Shown here: one piece after another, positions 3,702 to 64,000 of the stretch
Position numbering within the stretch: position 1 is the first letter of the stretch
How the letters are laid out: every line of letters begins with the position of its first letter
Assembly (NCBI GenBank): GCA_003225335.1
Contig: QHZE01000458.1
Location: 4,754 to 68,753, forward strand
DNA from: Acidobacteriota bacterium
GTDB taxonomy: Bacteria; Acidobacteriota; UBA6911
Reading direction: 5' to 3'
Length of the DNA: 64,000 bases
Made by a program: the position numbers and the translations under genes
Notes under the pieces: generated by a model
Seen by the model: only the letters and a program-made list of their open reading frames with translations
What the model was told of the DNA's origin: nothing
The model's database searches: none

Positions 3702-3709
3702 ACATGTAC

Positions 3710-23870: not shown

Positions 23871-24018
23871 GCCGGGCTCCAGTGGCAGGCTGCGGCCCGC
23901 AGGCCCGCTGGCCGCGTTGCTCGCTCCTTACATACCGCAACGGGTATGCTCGTCGCTCGCGCCTTGCCAGCGGGCTGAGGGCCTGCAGCAAAGTGCAAAT
24001 GCTATTCTGTGACGTGCC
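23871..24018. repeat. MITE family C partial copy
   Basis: It is similar to the element at 59171-59441 (gcaggcccgctgg...cgagcg... core and a cctgcagcaaagtgcaaatg...-type terminus). It lies directly after the stop of the ASPIC gene. Confidence 0.5.
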
Positions 24019-24764: not shown

Positions 24765-24777
24765 AGGCCCCCGACTA

Positions 24778-25271
24778 GGTCCTCTTGGTGGACACGAAGT
24801 TCACAAACCTGTCAAATTTGCATCATGGGTCTCGCTCGGGAGGGCACGGCTTCAGCCGTGCCGCTAAAATTGGGTCAAGCCGGGGCTTTAGCCCCTGAGG
24901 GACTGCATCGACTCACTGTTGTGCAACACCTCAGCGGCTAAAGCCTCTCCTCCTGATACGCATTCCTACGGCACGACTGAAGTCGTGCCCTCCCGTGTTA
25001 AATAGCCAGATCCAGCACGGGTTCCTCCCCGACTGGCTGGGCGGCGGTATGAGGATCCCTCGCTATACATAGCGAGCAGACCTCATACCGCCGAGGGTAG
25101 GGAACCGCCGATGGACGCCGATCCACGCCGATGAGCGGCGCCGAACATCGGCGTGCATCCGCGTTCATCGGCGGTTTCAAACAACTGCGCTTGTTCCATT
25201 TCTCTTTTATCAACCATGCCTCTCGGACGAAATTTGACCATTTTGTGAACTTTGTGTCCACCAAGTGGACC
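24778..25271. repeat. Structured intergenic element bounded by inverted copies of an about 45-bp motif (aaatttgac..ttgtgaactttgtgtccaccaag), full of hairpins
   Basis: The left arm at 24778-24826 is the reverse complement of the right arm at 25228-25271. The interior contains several perfect hairpins (gggagggcacggcttcagccgtgccgc; ggctttagcc...ggctaaagcc; ggtatgagg...cctcatacc). A third copy of the motif is at 48708-48747. Confidence 0.45.
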
Positions 25272-25359
25272 TAGCCTATCATCGTAAAGAGTGAATACAA
25301 AGTGCAGGATACACAAATCGGTTGATTCCTCTGGCCGTCGCCTATACCGTGAAAAGAGC

Positions 25360-33184: not shown

Positions 33185-33192
33185 GGCTCTGG

Positions 33193-33427
33193 TTCATAAA
33201 TACGGTAACGAATTTCGCCCCAGCGGGGCGCGTGGGAGCTTAGCCAGGGGTGAGCGCTTTTTGCGAACCCTGGAACAGGGCCTGCGTGACCAACGCGCCC
33301 CGGCAGGGGCAGCCAGGGGTTCGCAAAAAACGCTCACCCCTGGCTAATTTAATTTCCTCACACCCCTTCGGGGTGGAAGAGCTTTGACCCATAGGCGGGG
33401 CGGAATACGTTACCGTATTTATGGCCG
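33193..33427. mobile_element. MITE family B copy (about 235 bp)
   Basis: The TIRs are cataaatacggtaacg ... cgttaccgtatttatg. The internal inverted repeat is ttagccaggggtgagcgc...gcgctcacccctggctaa. Confidence 0.7.
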
Positions 33428-33460
33428 TGTATACTTAGGGAGTGAGACGAATGCTGAGTC

Positions 33461-38394: not shown

Positions 38395-39567
38395 GTGCTC
38401 ATTAAACTTTCGGCTTCGGCGAGCAAAGCGGGTCCTGAGCCTTGGGTGACTCTCGGTCACTGCGCCGTCTGCCCCGCACAGGGTAGCGGGACGAAAACGA
38501 TGAGATATAAGGCGGAGAGTGGGAGCTATCTTCGACCCCATATAGGCTCGGCCTGCTGTGCGCCTGGGGTCCTTGTCTTTTGCGTTATCGTCGGGCTAAC
38601 CCGTCCTTCGCTCCCGGCGGCGGGCGAACAAAAACGGAAGCACGACGAAGCGCGGACCGATCGGTTCAAACAATGGCTGAATGGAGATGTGGTGTACATC
38701 ATCACACCAGAGGAACGCGCCGTCTTCGAGAAACTAAGCACGGACGACGAGAGGGAGCGGTTCATCGAGCAGTTCTGGAAGAGGCGCGAAGGCGGCTGGA
38801 ATCCTTCGCTCACGCCCGAAGAGTTCTATCGCGGGTATGTAGGTCGTGTCTTCGGCATAAGGGCCCTCGACACGATGCTCCGAGCTTACCGGAGCCTCGA
38901 TGAAAATGAGATGTTTATGGGCCTCGAGTCCGAGTTCAACGACTCCCACTTCTTTCTCGGACTCGGCAACTTCCTCAACTATGCCGACACGCGTGACATT
39001 CGCATGATGGGTCAATTCCACACGCAGAGTAACCCGTTTGAGGGCCCGGATTTTCCGAGATGGAACGTCAAGGAGCAGGACCGGTCTCCCTGGGTCGAGG
39101 AGTGTCGCTACCGCCGCGACCGGTTTGCCGAAGGCATCGAGCGGTTGAAAAAAGCCCTGAGCTATCGGCATCAGGCTCGCGAGAAGGTGCTACCAGGCTC
39201 GAGAGACGAGCTGGAGTATCTGATCTTCAAAACCGATACCTACATTCCGCATCTGGAAACCGTCCGGGTCCTTCTGGGAGGCTATATGGCGTATGACGCC
39301 GCCTTCCGTGCCAGGAAAAAGGGGGACGAGAAGGAGATGCTGCTCGAGCTGGACAGATGCGAGTCACTGTTCGTACGGGCGCGCGCCCTGGCGCGGGAGA
39401 CCGCAGGACAGGTTGCGGGGAAGGCGGACGACCCGACGGAGAAATACATATTGTTCCGGTACAACGTGCGTTTTGTCATCCCCATCGCCGAGTTCTGCAA
39501 GTTCATCAAGAATGTCGTGGCCTTTCATCATGGCGAGCCTACTGGTCCGAGGTGGACTGGGAGGTAA
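38395..39567 (+). CDS. Chimeric protein: N-terminal GWxTD-N-like region + C-terminal about 130-aa domain shared with the 3916-4557 and 40800-41320 loci
   Basis: DVVYIITPEERAVFEKLSTDDERERFIEQFWKRRE parallels the 33461 GWxTD protein but lacks the GWxTD motif itself. The C-terminus ELEYLIFKTDTYIPHLETV...KNVVAFHHG is paralogous to 40890-41260 and to 3916-4557. An alternative start is at 38500 (MRYKAESG..). Confidence 0.45.
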   Translation: MLIKLSASASKAGPEPWVTLGHCAVCPAQGSGTKTMRYKAESGSYLRPHIGSACCAPGVLVFCVIVGLTRPSLPAAGEQKRKHDEARTDRFKQWLNGDVVYIITPEERAVFEKLSTDDERERFIEQFWKRREGGWNPSLTPEEFYRGYVGRVFGIRALDTMLRAYRSLDENEMFMGLESEFNDSHFFLGLGNFLNYADTRDIRMMGQFHTQSNPFEGPDFPRWNVKEQDRSPWVEECRYRRDRFAEGIERLKKALSYRHQAREKVLPGSRDELEYLIFKTDTYIPHLETVRVLLGGYMAYDAAFRARKKGDEKEMLLELDRCESLFVRARALARETAGQVAGKADDPTEKYILFRYNVRFVIPIAEFCKFIKNVVAFHHGEPTGPRWTGR

Positions 39568-46930: not shown

Positions 46931-46976
46931 GCCACAGAGCCACGGAGAAGTCTCTGTGTCTCCGTGGCTCTGTGGC
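46931..46976. other. Perfect 18-bp-stem hairpin (gccacagagccacggaga-agtctctgtg-tctccgtggctctgtggc)
   Basis: It lies about 95 bp downstream of the REC-HD-GYP gene stop. There is no U-tract on either strand, so it could be a terminator, a processing site or a protein-binding site. Confidence 0.3.
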
Positions 46977-48758: not shown

Positions 48759-50120
48759 TCATGGTTGGCTCGATTCGAGGTCGGAAGTGTATTGGTTGAT
48801 TTTATCCTCGACGGCAATGACTTCTACGTCGATGGTTTGGGCGCCGAACAGCGGTTTCAAGGCGGCGCGCGCCGCATCCAGAAGCGGCAGCGCGGTTTCA
48901 GAGAGACGTAAAATGACGGTGCCATCGGCGCGCTGGTGCAGACCGAACTGCGGAATAGGAAACTGGCCGAGAGCATGCGTGACATCGATATTGTTGATCC
49001 ATTCTTCGCTTTCCGTGCGAAACCGAACAGGTGGCCGGCCGGATAGACCGGTCAGCACTGGCGCCTCTGGGCTGAAAGAAAGCGAAGCGTAATCACCAGT
49101 GCGGTAACGCAGCAACGGCAGGCAAAAATTGAATCCACCGGTAAGCGTGATTTCGCCTCTTTCGCCGACGTTCACCGGATGCCCGGCCTTGTCGAGGATT
49201 TCGACGTAGAGCATCGGTTGCAACAAGACATGACCGCCGACCGCCGGATCGAACACGGCTACCGGACCTGCTTCGTTGAGCGAGTAGACGTCGAGCACGG
49301 GACAACCGAAGCGTTCCTCGAGACGTCGCCTCAAGCCGGGCGACAACATCATCGAGACCGAAATCAAAGCGCGCGGCCTCGCCGTGATCGGCAGGTTTAG
49401 AAGCTCAGCAAACGAAATTGGATCGCCCCCATAGACTTCTGGCGCCAGCGCGTCGAGATATCGCGCCCGGTCATCGGGGTCGCGCCAATCGTTCGGATGC
49501 AGATTGATCTTGGCCAATCCTGATTCGTCCATCGTCGGCGTCACCGACACATACGTGAAGCACTTGCGCTGATGGCCCAACAGCACGACACCCACTTGTC
49601 CGCCCCCGTGTGTGAGGTCAACGCCGAACCTTCGCAACGCCCGTTTGTGAAAAGCGAGATAACGACCGGCAACCATGGGGTGCGAGGCGATAAGCATGGG
49701 ATGGCCGGAAGTACCGGTAGTGCGGAAATTGATGAGCCGATCCAATTCGACCGAATCAGGAACGAAACGGGCGATGTCGGCGGCAAAATCGGCGCGCGAT
49801 ACGGTTGGTAGATCTTCAAAACGCGGCGGGGGCGAGCCGAGCGCTCGATAGAACGGAACGTCTTCAAAAGTACGCGCAACAAACGCTGTTGCCCAAGACG
49901 GCATGCAGCCCCGCGACCAACCCACAGCGGCTTCCAGGACTTCGCGTTCAAAAATCCGCAGCGCCTCGATATCCGCCGCCGTGAGGCGGTTGCCGCTTTG
50001 ATTGCGATAGACGGGCGCGGCGGGATGCTCGCGCATGAATTCGAGCATGCGCCGTCCCGCTTCCGTAAGCGTAGGGTAACGATCGTGATCGGTGACGAGG
50101 TCGCTCATTCGCGCGTCCAC
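48759..50120 (-). CDS. Adenylate-forming enzyme, phenylacetate-CoA ligase (PaaK)/coenzyme F390 synthetase-like
   Basis: 453 aa. ...NFRTTGTSGHPMLIASH... is a P-loop-like adenylation motif. The overall architecture is PaaK/F390-synthetase. It is the last gene of the minus-strand operon and overlaps the upstream gene by 16 nt. Confidence 0.7.
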   Translation of the reverse strand: MDARMSDLVTDHDRYPTLTEAGRRMLEFMREHPAAPVYRNQSGNRLTAADIEALRIFEREVLEAAVGWSRGCMPSWATAFVARTFEDVPFYRALGSPPPRFEDLPTVSRADFAADIARFVPDSVELDRLINFRTTGTSGHPMLIASHPMVAGRYLAFHKRALRRFGVDLTHGGGQVGVVLLGHQRKCFTYVSVTPTMDESGLAKINLHPNDWRDPDDRARYLDALAPEVYGGDPISFAELLNLPITARPRALISVSMMLSPGLRRRLEERFGCPVLDVYSLNEAGPVAVFDPAVGGHVLLQPMLYVEILDKAGHPVNVGERGEITLTGGFNFCLPLLRYRTGDYASLSFSPEAPVLTGLSGRPPVRFRTESEEWINNIDVTHALGQFPIPQFGLHQRADGTVILRLSETALPLLDAARAALKPLFGAQTIDVEVIAVEDKINQYTSDLESSQP

Positions 50121-50689
50121 TTGTCGGCCGATTCTTCGGCGGCCTTCTTGGCCAACGCCTCGCGGATGGCACGCGCGCGGCGCTCGGCGGCGCGACTCGC
50201 TTCCAGCAGACGGCGGCGCTCGGTACTGCTCAGGCTGGAGAGCCGATCTGTGGCTTGCGCAATGGTCTCGCGCGCCGGGCGATAGTTGAGACGCGCCAAT
50301 ACCACGCGCGCAAGCTCTTCGCGCCGATCGGTGTCGTTCACGAATTTATGCGCCGCCGTGGCCGCAGCCAGTTCGGTAACGGTTTCGTCGAGCACGCGCA
50401 GCGCGTCCGCTTGCGGGATTTTTACGGACACAAACCATTCATCCGCGAGCAGCCAAACCGTAATCATTGCAAGCGCAAGCCGATTTCGATCGATCTTCGC
50501 GTCCGCTCCATGAAAGCGCATGAGCGCGGCAGCCGGGGCTCGAGCGCCGTACAGAGACAAAAGATCGTTCACCAAGGCCGGAACAAACACGCGACCCGTT
50601 GTACCGATCCGTGGTTCATCGAGAAAATCAGGCGGCGTCTCGGCCAGACGTCGCGTCAGCTTTTCCAGTATTGGGCCTTGTCGTTCCAT
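50105..50689 (-). CDS. Hypothetical protein (194 aa, C-terminal charged/coiled region)
   Basis: No recognisable domain. It is translationally coupled, with its start 4 nt after the rSAM stop and an overlap with the next gene. Confidence 0.4.
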   Translation of the reverse strand: MERQGPILEKLTRRLAETPPDFLDEPRIGTTGRVFVPALVNDLLSLYGARAPAAALMRFHGADAKIDRNRLALAMITVWLLADEWFVSVKIPQADALRVLDETVTELAAATAAHKFVNDTDRREELARVVLARLNYRPARETIAQATDRLSSLSSTERRRLLEASRAAERRARAIREALAKKAAEESADKWTRE

Positions 50690-50692
50690 GGT

Positions 50693-51661
50693 TCAGACGG
50701 CGAACTTGGCAAAAACATGGGTAGAAGGACAATCGTTGCACACCGGCGCCGGCTTGCGCTCGCGCGCCGTCGCGAAACTCCCGGGCAAGGAGAGCAAACC
50801 GTCGACGGAGCAAACGGCCTTTAGCGGCAGACCGAAATTCTCTGACGTGAAACTACATGGCGAGACACGGCCGCGCTCATCGACGAACAGGAAGCTCTCG
50901 CCGGGGGCACAATCGTTGACCGCAAGACTGATGTCGTGCGTGCTCGCGTCGATCCTTCTGAGATACTGCCCGCTTCCACATAAGCGCACACCCCGGCGAG
51001 CGAGTCTTGAACGCAGCCTGGGCAATATCGCCGACAGGGTTTGCGAATCTTGGCGCCGTAAACGGTGTGCGGAGAAGAATGCCGGTCGATCGCGTCCACC
51101 CAGTTGATTGAAGGTGATCTCATCGAATCCCCATCCGGCGAGCGCTTCACACAAGTCGGCGAACATCGTCAAATTGTCGCGCATGAGCACGACATTGGCA
51201 CGCAGTTTTAGCTGCGCCGCCATTGCAGTACGCGCCTGTGCGAGCGTTTGCACCGCTTCACGAAGTTGGTGCCAACCTCCAGGCCAACCTCTCACGTGCT
51301 CGTGAAATTCGGCGAAGCCGTCCACGCTCACGGTAAGCTCGGAAAAGCATTCAAGAATGTGACGCTGCACGCGCCCCAGGTGAAGCGTCGTGCCATTAGT
51401 CGTCGCGCTGACTTCAATCTGGAAAGTTTGACGCAATCGGTGCGAGACCTCGAACACAGGACGCCAAAGCAACGGTTCACCGCCGAGCCAACTCAAGAGG
51501 ATGCGTTCACCGGTCGTTCGTCGATACTCGCCCAGCACTCGACAAAACCGTTCCACCATCTGCTCATCCACGTCTTGCCGTGAGCGGGAAAGCGTTCGGT
51601 CATAGGCGCAGAAAGGGCATGAGCGATTGCAGCGTTCGGTGACGCGCCAAACGACGATCAT
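50693..51661 (-). CDS. Radical SAM enzyme with a C-terminal SPASM/twitch-like Cys-rich region
   Basis: N-terminal CNRSCPFC (CxxxCxxC). C-terminal Cys cluster ...CGSGQY...CAPGE...SPCSF...CNDCPSTH. The ATG overlaps the upstream stop (ATGA). Confidence 0.75.
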   Translation of the reverse strand: MIVVWRVTERCNRSCPFCAYDRTLSRSRQDVDEQMVERFCRVLGEYRRTTGERILLSWLGGEPLLWRPVFEVSHRLRQTFQIEVSATTNGTTLHLGRVQRHILECFSELTVSVDGFAEFHEHVRGWPGGWHQLREAVQTLAQARTAMAAQLKLRANVVLMRDNLTMFADLCEALAGWGFDEITFNQLGGRDRPAFFSAHRLRRQDSQTLSAILPRLRSRLARRGVRLCGSGQYLRRIDASTHDISLAVNDCAPGESFLFVDERGRVSPCSFTSENFGLPLKAVCSVDGLLSLPGSFATARERKPAPVCNDCPSTHVFAKFAV

Positions 51662-53484
51662 GGGTGAGTCTCCGCCCGGGTCGCCTTTTCTTTTGCTGCA
51701 TAGTGGCGCCGGCTGAACGAGCGCGCGAATTCGAGCAAATCCTCAAATTTCGCGATGGCGTGTATCTCCCATCCCTGTTCCCGGCGTGCCCGCTTCAAGT
51801 CCTCGAATACCGGCAAGTTCCGCCCGGCTTTTTTTTGATCCCACGCCGCCGGCAGGTTCAACGCCATCGTCCCGCCCGCGCGGCCTGTTGCGAGCGCATT
51901 GGCGGAGATATCCCATCCGCTATTGCCGCGCTCGTCACGCTCGAACATGGTCGTTATGCCGTCGTCGGAAATCATCAGGATGTGGACGGGCCGGCTGTTC
52001 GCATTCCTGCCTGCATACGTGTCGCGCAGCTGATGAATCGGAAAACACGTCCCTCCACCGTAGAACCCCGTGAGCACCTTCAGGATTTTGTCTTCGTCGC
52101 GCACGAATCCATCGGTGTGCAAGACCTGGTTCTTGCCGCTCCATAACGTCACCTGCACTCTTGAGCCGACGCGCAACGCCGACAGCGCAATGATTGCGCC
52201 GGCCAGCGTGAGATACGACGTTTGCCGCTGCGGGTTTGGCATGGAACCGGAACTGTCGACGTACATATCGAGATCGACCGGCATCCGGTCCGGGGTTCGG
52301 CCCGTTTCGCGGCCATATAATCGCCGCACCGTGGTGAGGCCGGGAATAGGCCGAGGCGACTGCATCACGCTCTGCAGCCAGTCAACTTCGTCTAATGGAT
52401 CGCCGATGTCCCAAGGCTCCAGACCCTCCATTTGCGGTTCGTGCGATTCCGGTATCTCGCGGGTCGGGAATCGGACGATATGCGGCAAGGCCCGTTCGCG
52501 GTAATAGCGAACCGCGATGTCGTGATCGGACAGTTTGATCCCGGCCGCTTTCAATATCTCGCCGTATTCGAAAGGCTCGCGTGCCTGGCCCGAAGAGTTC
52601 GACGATTTCTCTCGTCCTTCAGGGTCCTCGCCAACGGGTTCATCGAGACCGGAGATGCTCGGATCTTCCGCCGGATGGACGGCGCCTTCAATCTCATCCG
52701 CCTCGATGTCCTGCGCGCCGGACGGCTCGCATCCTTCGGCGGCATCCTTCGTGTCGTGCAAATAGTCGAGCGCCTTTTTATTTTCAGTGTCCTCAACCAG
52801 ATACGGCAGTAAGAGGGTTGCGAACTTTCCGGCGCCCCTCAGCCAGTCATTAGCGTATACACGGATCAATCGCGCGCCCAGCCAGGCATCGGTATCAAGA
52901 CGCTCATCGGCGCTGCCGCCGCCCAGCGTGCCTTTGTCCAATTTCCACAAGTTTTCATAAACCCGCATGTAAAGCGTCCACACGCCGCTTTGCTTCGCCT
53001 GCCCGTCGCCCGAGGCTTGCGCCAGCCGCTTGTATATATCCGCCATGCGCAAGTCGGCCTGGCGTTGCAATCGATCATTGATGTAGAGATCGGTGTAGAG
53101 ATTGGCAACCATCGGCGCGTGCCGCTCGAGTGTGGGCAATGCCCGCCGGATTCGAGCGAGCAACCGAAACTGATCGGTGGCGTTGCCCGGAGCGAGCACG
53201 TGATGGCCAATCTCATGCGCGAGAATCTCAACGGCGTAGTCGTCGAGGCCGAGGCTGTGTACCGTTTCGAGATCCACGACCACGCTTTGATCGGCGAGGC
53301 GGATCATAGCGAAGCTGCCGCTCAGGCCTTCCTGTGCCGCTTCCACGCGGCTCTCGCACAAGCGCGCATCACGCAACCGCGTGAACTTGCTCCACACTGC
53401 GACTGCTTGCGGCCATGCCGCGCGCCAGCGCTCGATCAGTGCCGAGCGCTTAGCAAGGAATTCGGCGTCGCGCAAAACGCTCAT
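51658..53484 (-). CDS. vWA domain protein with an N-terminal HExxH (zincin-like) region
   Basis: N-terminal AHEIGHHVLAP (HExxH). C-terminal MIDAS DLDMYVDSSGSM plus the vWA fold. The start at 53484 overlaps the upstream stop (ATGA). Confidence 0.7.
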   Translation of the reverse strand: MSVLRDAEFLAKRSALIERWRAAWPQAVAVWSKFTRLRDARLCESRVEAAQEGLSGSFAMIRLADQSVVVDLETVHSLGLDDYAVEILAHEIGHHVLAPGNATDQFRLLARIRRALPTLERHAPMVANLYTDLYINDRLQRQADLRMADIYKRLAQASGDGQAKQSGVWTLYMRVYENLWKLDKGTLGGGSADERLDTDAWLGARLIRVYANDWLRGAGKFATLLLPYLVEDTENKKALDYLHDTKDAAEGCEPSGAQDIEADEIEGAVHPAEDPSISGLDEPVGEDPEGREKSSNSSGQAREPFEYGEILKAAGIKLSDHDIAVRYYRERALPHIVRFPTREIPESHEPQMEGLEPWDIGDPLDEVDWLQSVMQSPRPIPGLTTVRRLYGRETGRTPDRMPVDLDMYVDSSGSMPNPQRQTSYLTLAGAIIALSALRVGSRVQVTLWSGKNQVLHTDGFVRDEDKILKVLTGFYGGGTCFPIHQLRDTYAGRNANSRPVHILMISDDGITTMFERDERGNSGWDISANALATGRAGGTMALNLPAAWDQKKAGRNLPVFEDLKRARREQGWEIHAIAKFEDLLEFARSFSRRHYAAKEKATRAETHP

Positions 53485-54482
53485 AGCAGAGGAAACAACC
53501 GTATAGTGAAGGTGTAGAGGGAAGTGACCGCTATGGTATGTTCGTTGCACGTCACAGCCAGTCCGTCCTCCGGCAAGTCGAGCTCGACTTGACGTCCGCC
53601 CAACAAAAGCTTCGATCCTTTTAGCGGCGCCGTTTTTGCGCGCAGGTCGATCTTCGAGCCATCGAATTCTTCGGCCGTGGCCGGATGTAGTACCGCGCCG
53701 TAGGCATCAGCGATCAGGAAACTGAATCGATCGAAGCTCTTTACGCAGAAACCTTCGGCGTTGGCGCGAACTTCGGGCGGCGCGCGAAATATCCCGCCAA
53801 AACCCGTGAACTGTCCGATTTCGATACCCTGTAACGCACGACGCTTTTCAACGGCCGGCGCCCACCAGGGGTCAGCCAGGAAGTTTTCGCGCACGGACGT
53901 CCACTTATCGCCCGCGGCTGCTCCCACGGCGGCAAGCGCAACGTTTTCGGGCAGCTGGTCAGCAACCCGAATCGCGCCCAAGCGAAAGTGCGCGAGGCCA
54001 CCGCGCCACGCCATGATCTGCCCTATTGCTCGCAAGCATGAGACGGAATCGGCGTATTTGGCTAAATCAGTCATGCCCTGTATCCATTGATCGGCGCGCG
54101 CGTTCGGTACCTTGCCGATATTCACCGCTGCATTGGTAAGCGCGCCGAGCACTTCCACCGGCTGTTCCGACACCAGGCGCGCGTATTGGGGCGCCAGCGC
54201 TTGCCAGACGCGATCGATAAGCTCGCTGCGGGCGCCTGGACCCGCAAGCGCTTGACCAACGAGCTCGAGCCCAATGTCGTACGCCACGACGGCGACCGGC
54301 GCCACACGTTCTGGAGCGATCTCGGCGACGGAGCGTACTACCGCATCCACACTCGTGCGCAAGAAGGCGGCGAAGGCCATGCTGTCGAGCGCCGGATAGT
54401 GATGTTTCGCCTCCGCGACGCGGGCATTGAACTGCGCCCGGCCGGCAGCGAGCACTCGAGCCAAGGGATCAGAGATGGTCAT
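53481..54482 (-). CDS. Hypothetical protein (333 aa) encoded between the MoxR and vWA genes
   Basis: No recognisable motif. Its position matches the third component seen in ternary vWA-MoxR systems. Its start abuts the MoxR stop. Confidence 0.4.
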   Translation of the reverse strand: MTISDPLARVLAAGRAQFNARVAEAKHHYPALDSMAFAAFLRTSVDAVVRSVAEIAPERVAPVAVVAYDIGLELVGQALAGPGARSELIDRVWQALAPQYARLVSEQPVEVLGALTNAAVNIGKVPNARADQWIQGMTDLAKYADSVSCLRAIGQIMAWRGGLAHFRLGAIRVADQLPENVALAAVGAAAGDKWTSVRENFLADPWWAPAVEKRRALQGIEIGQFTGFGGIFRAPPEVRANAEGFCVKSFDRFSFLIADAYGAVLHPATAEEFDGSKIDLRAKTAPLKGSKLLLGGRQVELDLPEDGLAVTCNEHTIAVTSLYTFTIRLFPLL

Positions 54483-56063
54483 TTATTGTGAGCGCAGCCA
54501 GTGTAGATAGTTGGTATAGCGCTGATGCAGATATTTAAGCTTGAGCAGATCGTCGTACAGGTGACCATATAATTTGCGGCCCTTTACGAGTTCGCCGATC
54601 AAGCGCTCGATCTTGGAAAGCCTTGAACGCGTCTCGCGCTCGCTGAGACCGTCCAATCCCTTGGCAAAATCGGCGGAGAGTTCGCCGACCGCATCGTTGC
54701 GATCAAGATCGAGACGGTTGTACTCGTCGTTGGCGAGATCGAACAAGCGGCGCAGCCATCCCAGACGGTCTGTGCGATACGCTGCATTCTCCGGAAGACC
54801 GAAGAACGGCGCATCCAGATCCGGCTGCAGTTTGTCGTGCAACACGAACGGCAGAGTCTGGCGCACGTCTTCGAGCTCCACGGTTCGGTTACCCCGAAAA
54901 TATGTCAGCGCCTTGGCAAAAATCAGCAGAGTCATCAGATTGCGCACCGACAAACCGTTGCGCGTCTGACATCCCAGGTCCTTGAGCCGATCGCGGCCGT
55001 TATCCGCTGCCACCATCTGACCCCAGTCGATACCGGAAAGCCGCGCGGTATCTTTCGTCATGTATTCGAACTGGGCGCCTGCGGTTTCAAAGAGCTCGAA
55101 CTGGCTGGCGAAGAATTCCAACCGGCGGCGCACCTCGACAGGTACTTCCACCTGGAGGATCTGCTCGCCGAGACGTTCGACCTCTTTTTCGGTGAATACA
55201 ATCTCGCGTGGCACAACCTCTTCGGGTCGAATGTTTTCTTCGATACGCACCAACAGATCACCGAGGAAGCGCGGGTTAAACGCCAGCGCCTGTACGATCA
55301 CGTCGATGCGGTCGCGCAGCGCTTCGATTACCTGGTAAGTGCCGCCGCCCTGGTCGTCGTTCGCCGTCAGGTACCACGCGGATTCCGGGCATTCGTAGAT
55401 ATGGTTCAGCACCTCCGCGTAGTTGTCCCCCATGACCGTCAACAACGCGCTTTGCGTGCGCGTGGGGATACGGTTGTATTCATCGACAATTTTCACCCGC
55501 ATCGACAACCACGAGCGCCACGCGATGCGGATGTCGTTCATGCTCTGCGCGTTCACCAAATCCGCCGGCAACGGATTGCCGAGCAAATCGGCGATCGTCA
55601 TTTGCGGATGTCCATGCTGCATTGCGCGGCGTACTTCGCGCACTGGATAACCGGCCAAGACGCCCATCAAAACTGCGCTTGCCGTTTTGCCTCGGCCTGC
55701 ACCGCCGACGAACAAGCATTTGCGCCGGGTCGCGAATGTCAACAGCGGGAACAAGATGAAGCTGGAGTAACTTTGAGCGGAGGGGAGCGTCAGCGTTCGT
55801 TTGCTGTCTCCAACCGCATATGTCTGCGCCGGTCCATCGTTGTACTCGACATCGTAGTGCGGGCTGATGACCGCATTGTTCACGATCCAGAAGTAAGCCT
55901 GCCGAAGTTTTTCATCGAGGGCCTGACTTCCTTCCTCGACCGCGGCGCCCGTTTGAATTGGTCCCTCATACAGGTCTGCAACGTCGAATTGACGAGTCTT
56001 CGGCGGGGCTTTCGGATTGGTGGGAGCTTGGGATACGCGCTGAAAAATGTTGAAAGGTGCCAT
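54483..56063 (-). CDS. MoxR-like AAA+ ATPase (with N- and C-terminal extensions)
   Basis: Walker A LFVGGAGRGKTASAV. Walker B KIVDEYNRI. The MoxR-type lid ...LSVRNLMTLLIFAKALTYFRG. AGGACGA RBS. Confidence 0.75.
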   Translation of the reverse strand: MAPFNIFQRVSQAPTNPKAPPKTRQFDVADLYEGPIQTGAAVEEGSQALDEKLRQAYFWIVNNAVISPHYDVEYNDGPAQTYAVGDSKRTLTLPSAQSYSSFILFPLLTFATRRKCLFVGGAGRGKTASAVLMGVLAGYPVREVRRAMQHGHPQMTIADLLGNPLPADLVNAQSMNDIRIAWRSWLSMRVKIVDEYNRIPTRTQSALLTVMGDNYAEVLNHIYECPESAWYLTANDDQGGGTYQVIEALRDRIDVIVQALAFNPRFLGDLLVRIEENIRPEEVVPREIVFTEKEVERLGEQILQVEVPVEVRRRLEFFASQFELFETAGAQFEYMTKDTARLSGIDWGQMVAADNGRDRLKDLGCQTRNGLSVRNLMTLLIFAKALTYFRGNRTVELEDVRQTLPFVLHDKLQPDLDAPFFGLPENAAYRTDRLGWLRRLFDLANDEYNRLDLDRNDAVGELSADFAKGLDGLSERETRSRLSKIERLIGELVKGRKLYGHLYDDLLKLKYLHQRYTNYLHWLRSQ

Positions 56064-56147
56064 CGTTTCGTCCTGTATCGTGTCCTCGGACTTCTGATTG
56101 TCGAAGTCCGAGGACCACTGACCTCACCGCACTTACTAGGGATTTCG

Positions 56148-56385
56148 CAAATACGGTAACCTAACCGCTCCGGAGCGGTAGGAACTTAGCCAGGGGTGAG
56201 CGCTTTTGCGAACCCCTGGAACCCGTGCCTACGCGACCAACGCGCCCCGGCAGGGGCGCGGGGAACTCCTGCAACCCCTGCCGGGGTGCGTATCGTTGTT
56301 CCTATTCTACCCGGGGGCTCGCTTCGCTCACCCCCAGCTAAGCTCCTTGCGCCCCGCCGGGGCGAAATGCGTTACCGTTTTATGG
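56148..56385. mobile_element. MITE family B copy inserted between two genes of the operon; it supplies the stop codon of the 776-aa gene
   Basis: The TIRs are gcaaatacggtaac ... gttaccgttttatgg. The TAA stop of the 56380-58710 gene is formed by the terminal nucleotides 56380-56382. Confidence 0.7.
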
Positions 56386-58710
56386 ATCACCTACTTCGTT
56401 CGGAAACTCGCGAATCGTTCTCTCCTGAAGCTCGGTTTCGATCGCGCGCGGCGACCGTATCTTGCGCACGAGATCGATCGCAGCGGGCGCTTCAAAACCT
56501 CGCGATCTCAAGAAACAAGCTGCCACCGTTCCGGCCCGCCCCAAGCCGCCGACGCAGTGAACCAGTACATTTTCCCCATCCTTCAGTTGTTTCGACAGTC
56601 GGGAAACAGCATCTAATAGTTCGGTTCGACCCGGCACGCGTCCATCAACGGCAGGCAAATGCTCCACTTCGATCCCGAGCGCGCTGTACCGGGACAACAG
56701 ATCGTTTACGCCGTATCGGTGGAATTCGTCGTCAGTCAACAAACAAATAACTCTATCGATATGCTCGTTCATTAAGACTCTTAAATCCTCGTCGAGCGAA
56801 CGTCCATAATCGCGACGCCCCGGCATAATAGTAAGGCCGAGTCTGCCTGGGGTGGTGATAGCCTGAGGCAGCCAATCGATACGAAGCGGCCCAACTCGTG
56901 AAGCGCGCTGTGTCAAGGCATCGGCAGCGAGGCACGCCGAGTACAGTGCCCACCGTTTTTGCCATATGTTTGACTCTTGAAAACTCAGCGTATGGACGGC
57001 GTACCGAATATGACCGATTAACCATTGAGAGGGGTCACGATCAGCGTGAACCAGCTCGGGATAGTGCTCGCGCAGCAGGCCGACGATCCGGTAGGCGCGT
57101 CTGAGCTCCGGATGGGTCACCGCAGCGTTCAGCGCCGGCAGTGGCGCCGCCAGATCTTCGATCGCTATCAACAGTTCGCTTATTTGGATCGCTTGAGCGA
57201 AGTCGTGCTCATTTTCGATCCTGGTGAAAATATAGAGCAGGTCGTTTTCAAGTTTGATCAAGTCCCGCAACACATGGCCGCGGTGCGCATGAAAGAAATC
57301 GATCAGCCACACATTCGCTTGGCCGTCGATAATGATGTTTGCGCCATTGAGATCGCCGTGCACGTATGAGAAATAGTGGGAACGCGGGATGCGCGGCAAG
57401 GCGGCCAGCGTTTGACCGTAGAACTTCACAATATTTGGCGCGTTTCTGCCACCCGGAAATTCCAATGAATCGGTCCCGGCCGGCGCGCTGAGAACCTCTC
57501 CGACCCTGTGCGCAACCGAAGACGCCCATTCCGGTTTGAAGTCGTAATACTGAAAGAGATCCGACCGTTCGGCCTGCGCGGCACGATAAAAGCGGCCCAG
57601 CTGATCAACGAATACTGAATCAAGTATTCGTTTGACGTCTTGATCAGACGCACCGGCTTCATAGATTTTCTGAAACGAACGGGAATCGCCGCGTCCCATG
57701 GCGGCATAGCGATATTTGATGGCGCCCCGTGTTTCCAGATCCGCAAAGTCCGCGACACGCGGAGCCGAATTCCCCAGCACCGCTTCAATCCGCTCAAACG
57801 ATGTACGCTCCTTGCCGATGAGCGCCTTTGGGCCGATCTTCACGACATGCGGCACCTGCTCATGGCCATGGAGGTCGATGCTTTTTGTTCCGAGAACAAA
57901 GTTGCCAGAGAATCCGCCATCCAATGTGCGAACGTCGACATGTCGACAACCGCGGAACAGGTAACGCACTAACTTGCGGTCGGTATCGCTAAGCGCCGTT
58001 TTGTCGAGCACCTGTACGTCGGGATGTTTTTGGCTGAATCCAATAAGCGGCGCGTCCTCGACCTTCCCGCCAAGGAACTCGATGAATTCGCCTACCGACG
58101 GTATAACATCCACCCCAAGAATACGTTCGAGCTGATCAAGCGCCACGAAGTGATTTTCGCGCGACGAGCTTGCCGTGAGCGCGGAACACACCGCCAGGCG
58201 GAAGTGCGGATAACGACTGCGCAGATCGTAGCCGAGGAAAGTGATCTTCGCTTCCGTCCACACGCCCATCAATCCCACGCATACCGCAGTTGTGCAATAA
58301 GGGCGCAGGACGTCGTCCAGGTGTGCATCGACAAAGTTGCTTAGCGTTGTCGCGTCAACGATTTCGAGGCGCTTGTTCGCGTGTACGTTTTGGATGTCAA
58401 AGACAAATTCGGCTCCAATCGAATTTCGTAAACAATGCCGGCCAAATTGCTCCAGATGAGACCGCTGCTTCGGGTCGCTGGAATCATGCCAGTCGCGAAC
58501 ATGAATGACCTTGAGGATTTCATCGGGTTGAGCATGCGCCCACGTGATCATGCGAGCGACGGGCCCCTCCGCCGGATTCCTTCCCAACAAACGCAGTGAT
58601 TCGTCGTGACCGACGTGCAATGCATTCGGTAACCCTTCGAAACGGCCAACCGGACCGACGAAGTCGTTCTGCAGGCAGTCGGTTATAAGGATCGAGGTGT
58701 TCGCCGACAT
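56380..58710 (-). CDS. Three-domain fusion protein: isochorismatase-like hydrolase + APH/kinase-like domain + protein-tyrosine/dual-specificity phosphatase (776 aa)
   Basis: N-terminus: ILITDCLQNDF ... TTAVCVGLMG (isochorismatase/nicotinamidase-type motifs with a Cys). Middle: SYVHGDLNGANIIID...WLIDFF (Brenner HGD...N and DF kinase motifs). C-terminus: VLVHCVGGLGRAGT (HCx5R PTP loop). Confidence 0.7.
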   Translation of the reverse strand: MSANTSILITDCLQNDFVGPVGRFEGLPNALHVGHDESLRLLGRNPAEGPVARMITWAHAQPDEILKVIHVRDWHDSSDPKQRSHLEQFGRHCLRNSIGAEFVFDIQNVHANKRLEIVDATTLSNFVDAHLDDVLRPYCTTAVCVGLMGVWTEAKITFLGYDLRSRYPHFRLAVCSALTASSSRENHFVALDQLERILGVDVIPSVGEFIEFLGGKVEDAPLIGFSQKHPDVQVLDKTALSDTDRKLVRYLFRGCRHVDVRTLDGGFSGNFVLGTKSIDLHGHEQVPHVVKIGPKALIGKERTSFERIEAVLGNSAPRVADFADLETRGAIKYRYAAMGRGDSRSFQKIYEAGASDQDVKRILDSVFVDQLGRFYRAAQAERSDLFQYYDFKPEWASSVAHRVGEVLSAPAGTDSLEFPGGRNAPNIVKFYGQTLAALPRIPRSHYFSYVHGDLNGANIIIDGQANVWLIDFFHAHRGHVLRDLIKLENDLLYIFTRIENEHDFAQAIQISELLIAIEDLAAPLPALNAAVTHPELRRAYRIVGLLREHYPELVHADRDPSQWLIGHIRYAVHTLSFQESNIWQKRWALYSACLAADALTQRASRVGPLRIDWLPQAITTPGRLGLTIMPGRRDYGRSLDEDLRVLMNEHIDRVICLLTDDEFHRYGVNDLLSRYSALGIEVEHLPAVDGRVPGRTELLDAVSRLSKQLKDGENVLVHCVGGLGRAGTVAACFLRSRGFEAPAAIDLVRKIRSPRAIETELQERTIREFPNEVGDP

Positions 58711-58721
58711 GGCGCTCGGAG

Positions 58722-58997
58722 TTATGAGTTTTTCGCTGGTGTTTGAACGGATTGTTCAGCTCGTCGTTTTTCATCGACAAGTCTGGCTTCGGTTATTAAT
58801 TCGTCACATTTGATAAGTAGCGGGAACACCTCGCCGGTCCTATTCCGCGGAATCTCCTCCGCCCCTTCGGTTGTCAGCGTTTCCGTGGACGTCAGCAAAT
58901 AAATACGGGTGGGCGCTCGACGGGGCAGGGGTTGGCCATTTGCTATCGGGAAATGTGTCTTAAATCCAATATCGGCCGGTTTGATTCCGATAACCAT
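58722..58997 (-). CDS. Small hypothetical protein (91 aa) immediately upstream (11 nt) of the 776-aa gene
   Basis: ATG start with no recognisable family. It is a possible first gene of the operon. Confidence 0.3.
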   Translation of the reverse strand: MVIGIKPADIGFKTHFPIANGQPLPRRAPTRIYLLTSTETLTTEGAEEIPRNRTGEVFPLLIKCDELITEARLVDEKRRAEQSVQTPAKNS

Positions 58998-59170
58998 ATG
59001 GCGCAGTCCTACATAAACATCGGCCGGCTTGTAATCTTCCGTTACGTTCTTGCGGCGGGATTTTGCGCGAAAACGATGTTCGGGCGGGCACAGGTCCCGG
59101 CCCTACAGGTCTGCGGGAAGGCCGAGTTTACATAGAAGGCACCAAGAATCGCACGTTTTTCGATCCTTAA

Positions 59171-59441
59171 GGCTCGCGCAGAAATAACTTCACATTTTGC
59201 TGCAGGCCCCCAGGCCCGCTGGTGAGGCGCGAGCGACGAGCTATACCCGGGGCCGTATGTGAGGAGCGAGCAACAAAGCCAGCGAGCCTGCGGGCCGCAG
59301 CCCGCAGGGGCGCGGCGGCAAGGGCGCGTATCGGCTTCGTTGCCGCTCCTCGACGATGTCCGACATCGCCTTCGTCGCGGCGCCTCGCATTTGCCCGCCC
59401 GGCGCTCGCGCCAAAATGTGAATTTATTTCTGCGCGAGCCC
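59171..59441. mobile_element. MITE family C, full copy (about 270 bp) with 29-bp TIRs and a CTTAA/TTAA flanking direct repeat
   Basis: The TIRs are ggctcgcgcagaaataacttcacattttg ... caaaatgtgaatttatttctgcgcgagcc. It is flanked by cttaa on both sides, and the right TTAA contains the stop codon of the hydrolase gene. Confidence 0.6.
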
Positions 59442-61559
59442 TTAAGCCTTTAAGGCCTGCCAGGAGTCCCACGATGCTTCATCCAGGACTTCCACGTTGC
59501 CAGCTTCCTGATAAGCCCTGCGGACGTCGGAAGTCTCCATGCGCTTGGCGGAGCCGTCCACTCCACCGGCTATCACAACCTGCCGCGGGGCGATCCCCGC
59601 AACCAGCCTGGGCAGGTCGGTGTGATTCAGTAGATTTGTCACAAAGTTGCCGAATGGATGCACGTAATTCTCAGCATCCACGAGCGCACGGAAAGAGATC
59701 AGCCCTCCTGCGAGATGGAGGGCCCCGATGGAGGTCTCCAGCGACGCGGCAAAAATTGCGGGGACGGTCATCATCCCCTTCGCCGCGAGAATCAGAGGCC
59801 GGCCGGCGAGGTCGACGCGGGCCCGAAGGGCCTGAACAAGCGCCAGAATATCCGTGACGCGCTGGCCCAGCAGCGGTTTCCCCAGAATCAACGAGGCCCA
59901 GGCATACTCTTCTTCGCTGTTGTGGGACCTTGCATAACGGGCCGCCCCGCGCGAAAACTCGGGCGTCAGATCACCGGCGCCTCTCAAGTCCGGGGCGCAT
60001 ACTACGCAGCCCGCCGTAGCGACCCTATCGTAGGTCTCTCCTTCGTGCCACTGCCCGCGCGCCGCCGGCTCCAGCACGACTACGACAGGCTTGGAACGGT
60101 CTGTCTCCTTAGGCCGAAAGAGCCAGGCCGGGATCCAGACTCGCGGCGCCGAAGGAACCTCAATTGCCTCGATCTCTGTGCGACGAAACCGCGTGCGCCC
60201 CAGCGTTGCGGCGCGGACGGCGCTGGCTGGGCGCTCGACTCCCAGCAGCTCCTCGAGCTTGACCGGAATGGCCCCCACCTCGCGCTTCTTGTTCAGGGAA
60301 AATGGTGTCTCGCTTTGCAGCGACTGCACCACGCTGCCCGACGCCGTCACAAAGAGCGTGGTCTCGGGCTCCGGCGACACCTGCGGTTCCTCTTCGACCG
60401 CTCGCGCCTCGCCCTTGAGCCAGCGGCCGAGCCAACTATAGATCTGAAGGCGCATCGCGTAGGCGAGCCCGTGAGGCAGCGGTGTGCTGTTCCAGGAAAT
60501 ACGGTCGCCGCGCCCCATGGTCTCGTAAATTTTCCGCAGCTTTTGAAACTCTTCCCATCCACTTGTAATGTAGTTCGAAGAGTAAGTGCCGAAAAAGTCC
60601 TTATCGCTCACCAGGACCAGGAGCGGCTTGGGAGCGAGCGGGTAGAGCAGGTCCCATCGATCGAAACCAATCGGGCCGGAACCAATGAAGTTCTGCTCGG
60701 CGTCATCGGTCGACCCTGGCGGGTTGAAGTTCGCGCAGGCCACGTTCTCGGTGTTAGGGCACACGATGGCTGCGGCAGCCAGGCGGTCGTCCACGCAGGC
60801 GAGGAGCATCGTGGTGGTTCCTCCGCCCGACTGTCCGGTCGAAGCGAGCCGCGAGCCATCGACCATCGGGTGCGAGGCAAGGTAATCAAGGCTCCGAATC
60901 CCATCCCAAACTTGCATCCGCGTGCTGGTGTCGCCGAACAACAGCATTTGCCGACCCGGCGCGGTGTGTTCTTCGTCGGCGTTCAGCCGGGTCCGGAATG
61001 GTTCTTCGGCCGGGTAATAGGTTCGCTCTCCCTGCCCCATCGGATCAAAGGCCAACACGACGTAGCCGAGTTTCGCGAGTCCTTGGCAGCACCGTTGGTA
61101 AAGGTCATAAGCCTTGCCGTCGGTGGCATGTCCCATTTGAAACAGGACCCCGGGGAATGGCGGGCGGCCCGAGGTTGGCACGTAGAGATTTGCCGGAACA
61201 AAAAACCTCGGCTGGCTCTCGTACACCACCTTTTCGATCCGGTAGCCTTCGCGCTCGAACGAGCCAACGGTCCGCGCGTTCAGCGGGGTGCGCTCCGGCG
61301 TTCCCCCCACGAGCTTCCAGAAGGTTTTTCGAACCCAGCGCTGGCGATCGCGGATCGCCGCTGTTGTGGTCAGTTTCGCGATCTCTTGATTGCGCAGGTT
61401 ATAGGCGCGCTGAGCCAGGATGCGAAGATAATCCGGCAGGCACCGCGAATAGCTCCGGTAGTTCGCAGCGGGAACCGCCCCTTGGCCGTGCACGACTCCG
61501 GGGAAAGCGGCTATTGCGGCCGTCATGGATAGCAATTGCCGTCGGGTTAGCATAGTCAA
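59442..61559 (-). CDS. Tat-secreted alpha/beta-hydrolase family protein (acetylxylan-esterase/dienelactone-hydrolase-like; two hydrolase-like halves)
   Basis: Tat motif TRRQLLSMTAAIAAFPG. Nucleophile elbow GQSGGG. 705 aa. Confidence 0.65.
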   Translation of the reverse strand: MTMLTRRQLLSMTAAIAAFPGVVHGQGAVPAANYRSYSRCLPDYLRILAQRAYNLRNQEIAKLTTTAAIRDRQRWVRKTFWKLVGGTPERTPLNARTVGSFEREGYRIEKVVYESQPRFFVPANLYVPTSGRPPFPGVLFQMGHATDGKAYDLYQRCCQGLAKLGYVVLAFDPMGQGERTYYPAEEPFRTRLNADEEHTAPGRQMLLFGDTSTRMQVWDGIRSLDYLASHPMVDGSRLASTGQSGGGTTTMLLACVDDRLAAAAIVCPNTENVACANFNPPGSTDDAEQNFIGSGPIGFDRWDLLYPLAPKPLLVLVSDKDFFGTYSSNYITSGWEEFQKLRKIYETMGRGDRISWNSTPLPHGLAYAMRLQIYSWLGRWLKGEARAVEEEPQVSPEPETTLFVTASGSVVQSLQSETPFSLNKKREVGAIPVKLEELLGVERPASAVRAATLGRTRFRRTEIEAIEVPSAPRVWIPAWLFRPKETDRSKPVVVVLEPAARGQWHEGETYDRVATAGCVVCAPDLRGAGDLTPEFSRGAARYARSHNSEEEYAWASLILGKPLLGQRVTDILALVQALRARVDLAGRPLILAAKGMMTVPAIFAASLETSIGALHLAGGLISFRALVDAENYVHPFGNFVTNLLNHTDLPRLVAGIAPRQVVIAGGVDGSAKRMETSDVRRAYQEAGNVEVLDEASWDSWQALKA

Positions 61560-62463: not shown

Positions 62464-64000
62464 ATGCGCTGGTGGCGCTCGATGGGCAACTGGCTGCCGT
62501 GGTCCTCACGGCAGCGGCGGGAGGAGGATCTCGACCGCGAAATCCGCGCTCATCTGGAGCTTGAAGCGGAAGAGCAACAGGACTCCGGCCTGGCCGCGGA
62601 AGAGGCCCGCTACGCCGCCCAGAGGGCCTTGGGAAACGCGACATTGGTGAAGGAAGATGTGCGCGAAATGTGGGGTTGGAGTTCACTGGAACGGCTGAAG
62701 CAGGACCTCCGCTATCCAGCGCGAACCTTTGGCCTATCCGCCATTACCGGGGTGCTGTTCGGCCTGGCGCCGGCTCTACGTCTTTCGCGCGCCAACCTTC
62801 AGGAATACCTCAAGGCGGGCGGCAGAATCGGCGGGGCCGAAATGCGGAAGAGCGCGCGCAGCGCCCTTGTGGTGTCGGAAGTAGCCCTCGCGCTAGTGCT
62901 TCTGTCAGGCGCCGGCCTCCTGGTGAAGAGTTTTTGGCGGCTGCTCGAAGTCCGGCCGGGTTTTAACCCCGAAAGCGTCCTGGCGGCGAGAATCAACTTA
63001 CCCGCGGTGAAGTATCCGGAGCCTCACAAGCAGAATGAGTTCGTGCATCAATTGCTCGGCAGGATCCAAGGCCTGCCCGGCGTGCGCGAGACCGCCGTCT
63101 CCACCTCCATTCCATTTTCGGACGTTACGGATGTCGGCATCCGCATCGACCGACGCGCGCCTGGAACCCCCGAATCCGGAACCGCGGCTAACTACTACGC
63201 CGTTACGCCGCGCTATCTCCAAGCGATGGGAATCCCACTGATGCGCGGGCGCTTCTTCACGGAGCGCGACACCTTGGCGAGCCAGCCTGTGGTGATCATC
63301 AACGAGGTGATGGCCAGGCGATTCTTCCCCAACGAAGACCCGATTGGAAAGCGATTGGACATTTCCGGCCCGACATACCTGCGTGAGATCGTCGGGGTCG
63401 TGGGTGACGTGAAGCAGGGTGGTCTCAGGGCCTCGAAGACACCGCAGGTTTATGAACCATTCCTTCAGAAGCCGTCGAATTCCTTCAATGTTGTCCTGCG
63501 TGCGGCGGGCAACCCAATGCACGTGGCCGAAGCGGTCCGCCATGAGGTGCTGGCTATTGACAAGGAGCAACCGGTTTCAAACGTCCGGACCATGGAGGAA
63601 CTTGTCGCCCGTTCGGTAACACAGGACCGGCTCTCCGCATTCCTGCTCGGACTGTTTGCGGCCTTGGCCCTGGGTTTGGCCGCTATCGGAATCTACGGTG
63701 TGATGGCATACCTTGTTACCCAAAGAACGCATGAGATTGGAATCCGGATAGCGCTTGGCGCTCACCAGAGAGGCATTCTGCAGCTTGTTCTTGAGCAGAG
63801 CTTGCGGATGGTGCTGCTGGGCCTTGGGATTGGGCTGGCAGCTTCGCTCGCACTGACTCGCGTTTTGGGGAACCTGTTATATGAAGTGAAGCCGAGCGAT
63901 CCCCTAATATTCATCGCAGTATTCATTTTGCTCTTGGACGTAGCTCTCATCGCGGCGTTCATCCCCGCCCGCCGCGCCTCGCGCGTCGATCCAATGGTGG
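62464..64000 (+). CDS. FtsX-family ABC-transporter permease of the Acidobacterial 'ADOP'/MacB-like type, apparently lacking the first FtsX repeat; the 3' end lies beyond the window
   Basis: ATG 2 nt after the padR stop. The N-terminal cytoplasmic leader MRWWRSMGNW...LKQDLRY is typical of ADOP. It is followed directly by the end of an FtsX half (LFGLAPALRLSRANLQEYLKAGG) and one complete FtsX domain (TM + ECD + 3 TM). No stop occurs before the window edge. Confidence 0.7.
   Translation, partial: MRWWRSMGNWLPWSSRQRREEDLDREIRAHLELEAEEQQDSGLAAEEARYAAQRALGNATLVKEDVREMWGWSSLERLKQDLRYPARTFGLSAITGVLFGLAPALRLSRANLQEYLKAGGRIGGAEMRKSARSALVVSEVALALVLLSGAGLLVKSFWRLLEVRPGFNPESVLAARINLPAVKYPEPHKQNEFVHQLLGRIQGLPGVRETAVSTSIPFSDVTDVGIRIDRRAPGTPESGTAANYYAVTPRYLQAMGIPLMRGRFFTERDTLASQPVVIINEVMARRFFPNEDPIGKRLDISGPTYLREIVGVVGDVKQGGLRASKTPQVYEPFLQKPSNSFNVVLRAAGNPMHVAEAVRHEVLAIDKEQPVSNVRTMEELVARSVTQDRLSAFLLGLFAALALGLAAIGIYGVMAYLVTQRTHEIGIRIALGAHQRGILQLVLEQSLRMVLLGLGIGLAASLALTRVLGNLLYEVKPSDPLIFIAVFILLLDVALIAAFIPARRASRVDPMV

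Follow-up and report, generated by a model that had tools for sequence, protein, structure and literature searches.

Why should small repeats in a gene-dense bacterial genome end so often at stop codons? The question is raised by a 64,000-nt stretch of Acidobacteriota DNA (the window), in which the reading frame of a 776-aa protein runs into a short repeat and terminates there, and in which other repeats border other gene ends. We consider it probable that these repeats are non-autonomous DNA transposons of soil Acidobacteriota, belonging to at least three unrelated families (A, B and C), and that a CTWAG target combined with selection yields the copies found at stop codons.

Repeat families and the borders of the focal element

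Self-comparison of the window, which is ~58% G+C, resolved three repeat families, A, B and C. The elements are 160-320 bp long, with stops in all frames near their ends and no gene-like ORF. The features on which the argument draws are listed here, repeats and hairpins without strand.

3611-3708: partial family-B copy (self-comparison match to 3713)
3714-3975: family-A copy, right end short by ~26 nt (self-comparison match 3711-3973)
19276-19557: complete family-A copy, flanked by TTAG (19272-75) and CTAG (19558-61) (self-comparison match 19298-19560)
19635-19970: B2 composite, a B core in which the arms GGTGTAATTAGAAGTGCGAGTCAC / GTGACTCGCACTTCTGATTACACC replace the outermost repeat (self-comparison B match 19661-19895)
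23885-24018: half family-C element, its degenerate end abutting CTAAC (24019-24023) (self-comparison match 23885-23995)
33185-33433: family-B copy in a convergent intergenic region, with CTTAG duplications at 33180-33184 and 33434-33438 (self-comparison match 33195-33443)
54483-56063, minus strand: MoxR-like AAA ATPase, following the 776-aa gene in a conserved operon
56082-56115: 13-bp perfect hairpin between the focal MITE and the MoxR start, resembling the B2 outer arms
56132-56136, minus strand: distal target duplication of the focal B copy, CTTAC on the plus strand and GTAAG on the gene strand, a decayed CTAAG
56137-56393: family-B MITE, focal copy, 257 bp
56380-56382, minus strand: TAA stop of the 776-aa ORF, in the B inverted repeat (..CCA TAA AAC GG..)
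56380-58710, minus strand: 776-aa fusion protein with isochorismatase-like, TCAD9 and dual-specificity phosphatase domains
56394-56398, minus strand: gene-proximal target duplication of the focal B copy, CTTCG on the plus strand and CGAAG on the gene strand, a decayed CTAAG
59171-59440: family-C MITE of 270 bp, bounded by 17-nt inverted repeats without mismatch, GGCTCGCGCAGAAATAA (self-comparison match 59166-59446)

The borders of the focal copy were set by aligning it to 75 other B ends and by comparison with contig L099, from which the window differs between 56138 and 56397, the flanks matching up to 56137 and again from 56398. The preliminary description had placed the element at 56148-56385, a span that is a real repeat in the self-comparison but covers only the core of the element, whose limits are 56137 and 56393. 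Its inverted repeats (TAGGGATTTCGCAAATACGGTAAC on the left, GTTACCGTTTTATGGATCACCTA on the right) enclose an interior of G+C-rich hairpin modules. The stop of the 776-aa gene does lie within the element, as had been proposed, but it is not the last three nucleotides: the TAA sits 11-13 nt from the element end, in the gene-proximal inverted repeat GTTACCGTTTTATG.

Repeats are prone to misassembly, and contig L001 switches mid-element from the window sequence to a different locus, as is expected of repeat sequence. Two independent assemblies (L002 and L142) nevertheless cross the entire focal element and both flanks at >99% identity, and the alternative family-A allele of the same site is consistent in at least seven contigs of other samples, including two NCBI MAGs. 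We therefore attach practically no probability to the reading that the arrangement is a repeat-caused assembly artefact.

Three further copies also adjoin the end of a gene. In the family-B copy at 33185-33433, the left CTTAG contains the TAG stop (33182-84) of a DUF1501 gene. The family-C copy at 59171-59440 is flanked by CTTAA at 59166-59170 and 59441-59445, and a 705-aa alpha/beta-hydrolase terminates at a TAA in the right CTTAA (complement of 59442-59444); the earlier observation to this effect was borne out, with the element ending at 59440. At the half family-C element, the TAG that terminates a short-chain dehydrogenase gene (complement of 24019-21) is part of CTAAC at 24019-24023, and contig L136 has a different repeat in the place of this half element. 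The B2 composite at 19635-19970 adjoins no stop codon. The B2 subfamily is represented by 28 ends among contigs L115-L219, and its outer flanks are without CTWAG.

Target motif, duplication and element class

Soil metagenomes were scanned with a pattern that spans the B repeat end and the first hairpin module, giving 105 contigs with 110 arms; removal of redundant flanks left 75 non-redundant B ends, anchored on CGGTAAC. The terminal inverted repeat TACATGATTTCATAAATACGGTAAC is conserved among them, and the end consensus TACATGATTTCATAAATA|CGGTAAC is preceded by five conserved bases, C-T-W-A-G. At profile positions -23 to -19 we counted C in 57, T in 60, W in the centre (31 A, 36 T), A in 62 and G in 58 of the 75 ends, and beyond position -24 the information content is ~0. 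The commonest exact pentamers are CTTAG (28 ends) and CTAAG (14 ends). The near-equal use of A and T at the centre is what would be expected of a palindromic target entered either way round. In complete B copies the pentamers form direct repeats that share their central base at 12 of 13 distinct sites, the exception being a recombinant allele. Since the central base matches on both sides, the pentamer is a true target duplication and not part of the repeat end.

On the simplest reading, B would duplicate 5 bp of a CTWAG target, although at consensus sites the sequence would be no different under duplication of TWA (3 bp) with G...C as the repeat termini, and the non-consensus flanks of B and C are split between the two. 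Read as a 3-bp duplication, the repeats start with G (GGGCTCGCGCAGAAATAA..., GTACATGATTTCAT...). The consistent pentamers tabulated at the 75 ends, duplicated at 12 of 13 sites, substantiate the target-site specificity suggested for these elements. They also rule out the TTAA proposed as its basis: TTAA is found at 3 of the 75 B ends and at one C site, only within CTTAA or TTAAG, and the target is CTWAG (CTTAG or CTAAG, rarely CTTAA or TTAAG), most simply with a 5-bp duplication. TTAA-specific (piggyBac-like) elements were excluded, as there is no exact 4-bp TTAA duplication. Duplication of TA (IS630 kind) or of 8-9 bp was dropped when the 75-end profile fixed the element borders.

Family C shares the target. 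Its repeat GGCTCGCGCAGAAATAA is conserved in 22 ends, flanked by CTTAA, CTAAG, CTTAG or TTAAG, and it is present or absent among strains. At the DUF1501 site the filled allele L108 reads CACTTAG[GGCTCG...CGAGCC CTTAG]TACTCTGG and the empty allele L114 CACTTAG|TACTCTGG; C is present in L108 and L109, where it has inserted into the left CTTAG of a B copy and duplicated it, and absent from L114, L106 and L111. Family-A flanks are mostly YTAG before CTAGTTTCTGGCGCGAAAC and once CTAAG before TTTCTG. For B, empty-site alleles of 38 insertions were sought among the fetched loci and none was found; duplications, copy number and mosaicism are what point to its mobility, with replacement by A the only such polymorphism seen for B. 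Within flanks of 99.5% identity, several duplications show differences of 1-2 bases (at the focal site, and at C in L099), so that extra events are needed, such as gene conversion or excision followed by re-insertion. The outer C duplication at 59166-59170, for example, reads CTAAG in L099 and L103, whereas the window and four further contigs have CTTAA between identical flanks; two changes within 5 nt suggest re-insertion or conversion instead of point mutation.

The elements are thus short and non-coding, with conserved terminal inverted repeats and a target duplication, which are the properties of MITEs. A search of all fetched loci (~0.6 Mb) for the IS4/IS5-type motif D.G[YF] ... Y..R...E......K yielded no cognate transposase bearing the same inverted repeats; GGGCTCGCGCAGAAATAA or GTACATGATTTCATAAATACGGTAAC are the element-end sequences that would bound its gene. 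Scans of viral collections gave 4 chance matches to the C repeat ends and 0 to the B repeat ends, and a scan of genome collections with the inner 16-mer TTAGCYRGGGGTGAGC returned mostly chance matches among the matches listed.

Insertion sequences and MITEs of the IS427/IS1031 groups are bacterial relatives of the eukaryotic PIF/Harbinger and Tourist elements. Maize PIF, mPIF and Tourist prefer the palindrome CWCTTAGWG, whose core, CTTAG, is also seen in the elements here, and many IS5-family ends begin with G, as our repeats do under the 3-bp reading. The IS427/IS1031 groups of the IS5 family duplicate TTA/TAA (IS1237/ISLxx6) (PMC2516522), a short TA-rich target with which C|TWA|G would fit; the elements here differ in that they are read most simply with a 5-bp, not a 3-bp, duplication, and in that three families with unrelated repeats share one target. 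They resemble IS5/PIF-Harbinger MITEs, and we take the IS5 lineage as a lead to a putative transposase type rather than as a result. Bacterial MITEs at gene ends or in operons, such as Correia/NEMIS, RUP, ERIC and YPAL, are mainly intergenic, are co-transcribed as long hairpins and have an insertion bias due to target recognition (review PMC2229807). These too are small and non-coding with terminal inverted repeats and target duplications, but most have a TA target and are A+T-rich, whereas those described here have a G+C-rich, modular build, CTWAG as target and a systematic overlap with stop codons. REP/BIME sequences (RAYT-mobilised imperfect palindromes of 20-40 nt) and the palindromic elements derived from IS200/IS605 are likewise extragenic and often located between convergent genes; both lack such terminal repeats and a target duplication, and they are excluded by the long inverted repeats, the duplications and the motif. 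The families are new, but the kind of element is a well-known one.

Elements of different families also often stand back to back with a single pentamer between them (B|CTAAG|C and B|CTAAG|A; L108, L109, L139, L149, L155, L200 and L203), as in ...GAGTA|CTAAG|GGCTCG... and ...GAGTA|CTAAG|TTTCTG.... Neighbours exactly one pentamer apart, together with the occurrence of different families at the same site in different strains, could mean that a site-specific recombinase with a CTWAG crossover core moves the elements as cassettes, the apparent duplications being shared core sites. We regard this as very unlikely. The long terminal inverted repeats, particular to each family, are what transposase binding sites typically look like, the insertions are spread over dozens of unrelated loci, five bases are far below the length of known recombinase sites, and target duplication by a transposase yields the same array pattern, as each duplication would offer a fresh target.

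Insertion at stop codons

An ORF of 100 codons or more faces 24 of the B ends; its stop falls in the duplication at 11 of these, 8-30 nt upstream at 5 and within the element at 8. The coincidence noted in the window is thus reproduced in other copies (11 of 24 gene-facing ends). In two of the eight read-through cases (L151 and L159) the duplication has decayed and the ORF ends at the TAA of the repeat, as at the focal copy; this TAA lies at +12, in frame with the duplicated TAG (TAG TAC ATG ATT TCA TAA). Target specificity does bring the elements to stop codons, as had been suggested, but it is the native stop in the target that is duplicated, and the element does not supply a stop upon insertion. 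The ORFs that end inside an element appear to have arisen later, by decay of the duplication (focal copy) or by deletion (the family-A copy at 3714-3975).

Chance accounts poorly for these positions. With ~43 gene ends in the ~10 kb of non-coding DNA of the window, uniform placement would put an element border on a stop codon in ~1% of cases, and 4 of the 8 copies in the window have one there. Selection against insertion into genes is clearly operating: a long ORF almost never runs across the junction of a reconstructed empty site, and almost no B copy interrupts a gene. Insertion at random, with survival only of those copies that fell just after a stop, would make use of this selection alone. 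It does not explain why the five flanking bases are conserved also at ends that face no gene, why the motif is duplicated on both sides, or why stops are hit so much more often than the ~1% of uniform non-coding placement, and we consider it extremely improbable.

The motif itself is scarce. The window has 34 CTWAG sites, vs 58.7 +/- 8.0 in dinucleotide-preserving shuffles; 21 of the 34 are in genes, and the remainder are mostly internal to MITEs or form their duplications. We took a census of CTWAG in 232 kb of non-redundant long contigs, in which, as in the counts of stop codons above, genes were called by ORF length and codon-position G+C only. There were 45 free sites in genes and none adjoining a MITE, 7 free sites at stop codons and 4 adjoining a MITE, and 27 free intergenic sites. 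Stop-overlapping sites make up ~1/5 to 2/5 of the harmless sites, which matches the observed share, so that the motif plus purifying selection is sufficient, without a separate stop-sensing mechanism.

We propose the following sequence of events. Unseen transposases would insert B and C at near-palindromic CTWAG, duplicating it, and A mostly at YTAG. CTTAG holds TAG and its complement CTAAG holds TAA, so the target presents a stop triplet on both strands. In a gene-dense genome of 58% G+C, CTWAG is rare, and within genes it can occur only out of frame, where an insertion would destroy the gene; since such insertions are destructive, the harmless sites would largely be those CTWAG that overlap real stop codons. 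Duplication would preserve the gene's own stop and place a second copy of the target on the far side of the element, a copy at which further elements could accumulate or take each other's place. The stop-codon habit is striking but explainable in these terms, and it provides a simple, testable landing rule for such elements in G+C-rich, gene-dense genomes. For annotators, it is a warning that a repeat may be the source of a stop codon or a short C-terminal tail in genomes of this sort.

A more ambitious reading is that the habit is an evolved strategy, in which a guild of unrelated MITEs has converged on CTWAG as a safe harbour, gene ends are recurrent hot spots that vary among strains and see elements displace each other within a ~99.5% identical population, and turnover reflects current transposition and is not a by-product. 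We hold this to be rather doubtful. If it were true, the elements would be rewriting protein C-termini (+5 and +17 residues) and setting long hairpins into operons, a conserved conflict-system operon among them.

Same-site turnover and operon context

The 776-aa protein is identical or near-identical to proteins of uncultured 'Acidobacteria bacterium' MAGs and of many soil metagenome contigs; on this basis, and given the Acido-Lenti-1 motif in the window, we take the DNA to come from a soil population of Acidobacteriota. The protein cluster has two C-termini, ...REFPN* (771 aa) and ...REFPNEVGDP* (776 aa). The last five codons of the longer form (EVGDP) come from the duplication and the inverted repeat: the ORF in the window continues GAA GTA GGT GAT CCA and then meets the TAA in the repeat. 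Alignment of the focal site with further contigs revealed three states after the codon AAC. In the first, CGAAG is followed by B (the window, L001, L002 and L142); in the second, CTGAG is followed by B, with a TGA stop and a protein of 771 aa (L100); in the third there is a family-A element and a TAG stop (L099, L101-L103 and L226-L228). The far side of the site is GTAAG in all B alleles, and the flanks are 99.3-99.6% identical across the strains. Three more 771-aa protein variants that we checked all carry the family-A allele, none with an empty focal site.

The ancestral gene most likely ended ...TTT CCG AAC TAA G TGCGG..., encoding 771 aa, with its native stop in the CTAAG target. B would then have inserted into ...TTT CCG AAC TAA G at the end of this first gene of the conserved operon, and the gene-side TAA would later have become GAA in the lineage of the window, extending the ORF by five codons to the TAA of the repeat. 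The sequence that follows A in L099 (CGAAGTAAGG) is the remainder expected if B had been deleted between two AGTA repeats, which suggests that A and B were once adjacent here. The gene-side arm of B in L100 resembles the window copy at 19678-19808 (94% identity), pointing to exchange between copies.

Just upstream of the 776-aa gene, the window and L142 differ by the presence or absence of 130 nt (58696-58825), and a small upstream ORF has 91 or 79 aa depending on the strain (L100/L104/L227 vs L102/L103/L228).

Comparison of strains covered three sites, those at the 776-aa, DUF1501 and dehydrogenase genes. Behind the DUF1501 gene (31895-33184), the spacer differs among ten contigs that encode the identical protein. 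The cleanest allele, in L114, reads ...ttcaCTTAG|TACTCTGG..B..GTGTATA|CTTAG|AATGCTGAGTC tca, with the TAG stop in the left duplication, and the original spacer between the convergent DUF1501 and GWxTD stops would have been 11 nt. The window version of the site contains GGCTCTGGTT, which looks like a footprint of C excision. Beside the right B duplication, an 11-nt segment (GGAGTGAGACG / GAAGTGAGACG; 33439-33449) is present in some and absent from others of the strains L105-L114, and it may be the footprint of another element. This turnover at the same sites among near-identical strains is, in our view, the most interesting part of the system. It shows small mobile elements to be exchanged rapidly in uncultured soil Acidobacteriota, and it breaks metagenome assemblies as well.

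The focal MITE is housed in a seven-gene cluster (48759-58710, minus strand) whose gene order recurs in homologues that are 65-76% identical (L224 and L225): the isochorismatase-TCAD9-phosphatase fusion, the MoxR-like AAA protein, two unknowns of 333 and 630 aa, a radical SAM protein, a 194-aa protein and an AMP-binding enzyme. The radical SAM protein has weak matches to viperin (pVip; E = 3e-15) and is the only member of the cluster matched by PADLOC; the cluster is probably a conflict or defence system.

The position of the MITE inside an operon, between the 776-aa gene and the MoxR gene, agrees with the preliminary description, the gene order being conserved in the distant homologues. The fusion-MoxR spacer measures 316 nt in the window vs 24 and 117 nt in those homologues, and its transcript is predicted to fold at -184 kcal/mol (z = -9.9 vs shuffles). 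Such a fold, the retention of A or B in this spacer by every sampled allele (vs the 24-117 nt of the distant homologues) and the contrast with a putative ancestral DUF1501-GWxTD spacer of 11 nt could mean that the elements are kept by selection for some use, as a stabilising or processing hairpin, an attenuator or an insulator of convergent genes, and are not only tolerated. An intrinsic terminator was rejected, the minus strand of 55900-59600 containing neither a hairpin with a U-tract nor, on this operon strand, a promoter-like site. The motif census, moreover, predicts the stop-codon share without any benefit, and unrelated families replace one another at the same site. We judge selection for use to be unlikely, though less so than a recombinase origin, and prefer the CTWAG target with purifying selection. 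The downstream ORFs of the operon are intact in all alleles, and the natural alleles of the focal site (A, B with TGA, and B with the extended ORF) are suited to testing the effect of a 257-bp hairpin-forming insert on expression of a MoxR-containing operon.

The +17 residues are found at the family-A copy at 3714-3975, which is 99% identical to the complete copy at 19276-19557 and has on its left the CTTAG (3709-3713) that it holds in common with the partial B copy at 3611-3708. A minus-strand ORF, 3916-4557, reads 17 codons into this element (tail AGATQESPGRKPWEQAQ), vs homologues that stop one residue past ...FPQFSPP; the claim that the element replaces the C-terminal codons of a glycoside-hydrolase-like gene therefore holds in essence. 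The junction is at CCCCG, which is common to the gene end and the A hairpin, and the final codon, its stop and the terminal part of the element were probably lost together in a microhomology deletion. The gene itself, GH67 N-terminal-like (3916-6334, minus strand), is split into ORFs of 620 and 213 aa that overlap by 85 nt, and homologues of the 213-aa ORF reach further at the N-terminus; the split reflects either a frameshift or a sequencing error, or else the gene is a pseudogene.

Family A also bears on an Rfam entry. Acido-Lenti-1 (RF01687) is a 46-nt two-hairpin model listed as a candidate small RNA (Weinberg et al. 2010, PMC2864571). It scores 47.4 bits at 19296-19341 (minus strand), above the gathering score of 37, and lower on the other A arms, with 29.2 bits at 19489-19534 (plus strand), 22.8 at 3737-3782 (minus strand) and 25.0 at 3930-3967 (plus strand). 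The model thus matches the subterminal arms of family A; in contrast to the candidate small RNA of Rfam, these form inverted pairs inside a mobile repeat, and Acido-Lenti-1 may be an arm or module of a mobile element and not a free-standing small RNA gene.

Outside families A-C, the window contains inverted or palindromic repeats at 24775-25274, 34867-34974 / 38672-38779 and 46931-46976. At 62725-62896, inside tandem MacB/FtsX-type genes, related strains have ~1 kb extra (L099 4945-5993; L142 8922-9985), apparently owing to a deletion between paralogues in the window or to an insertion in the other strains.
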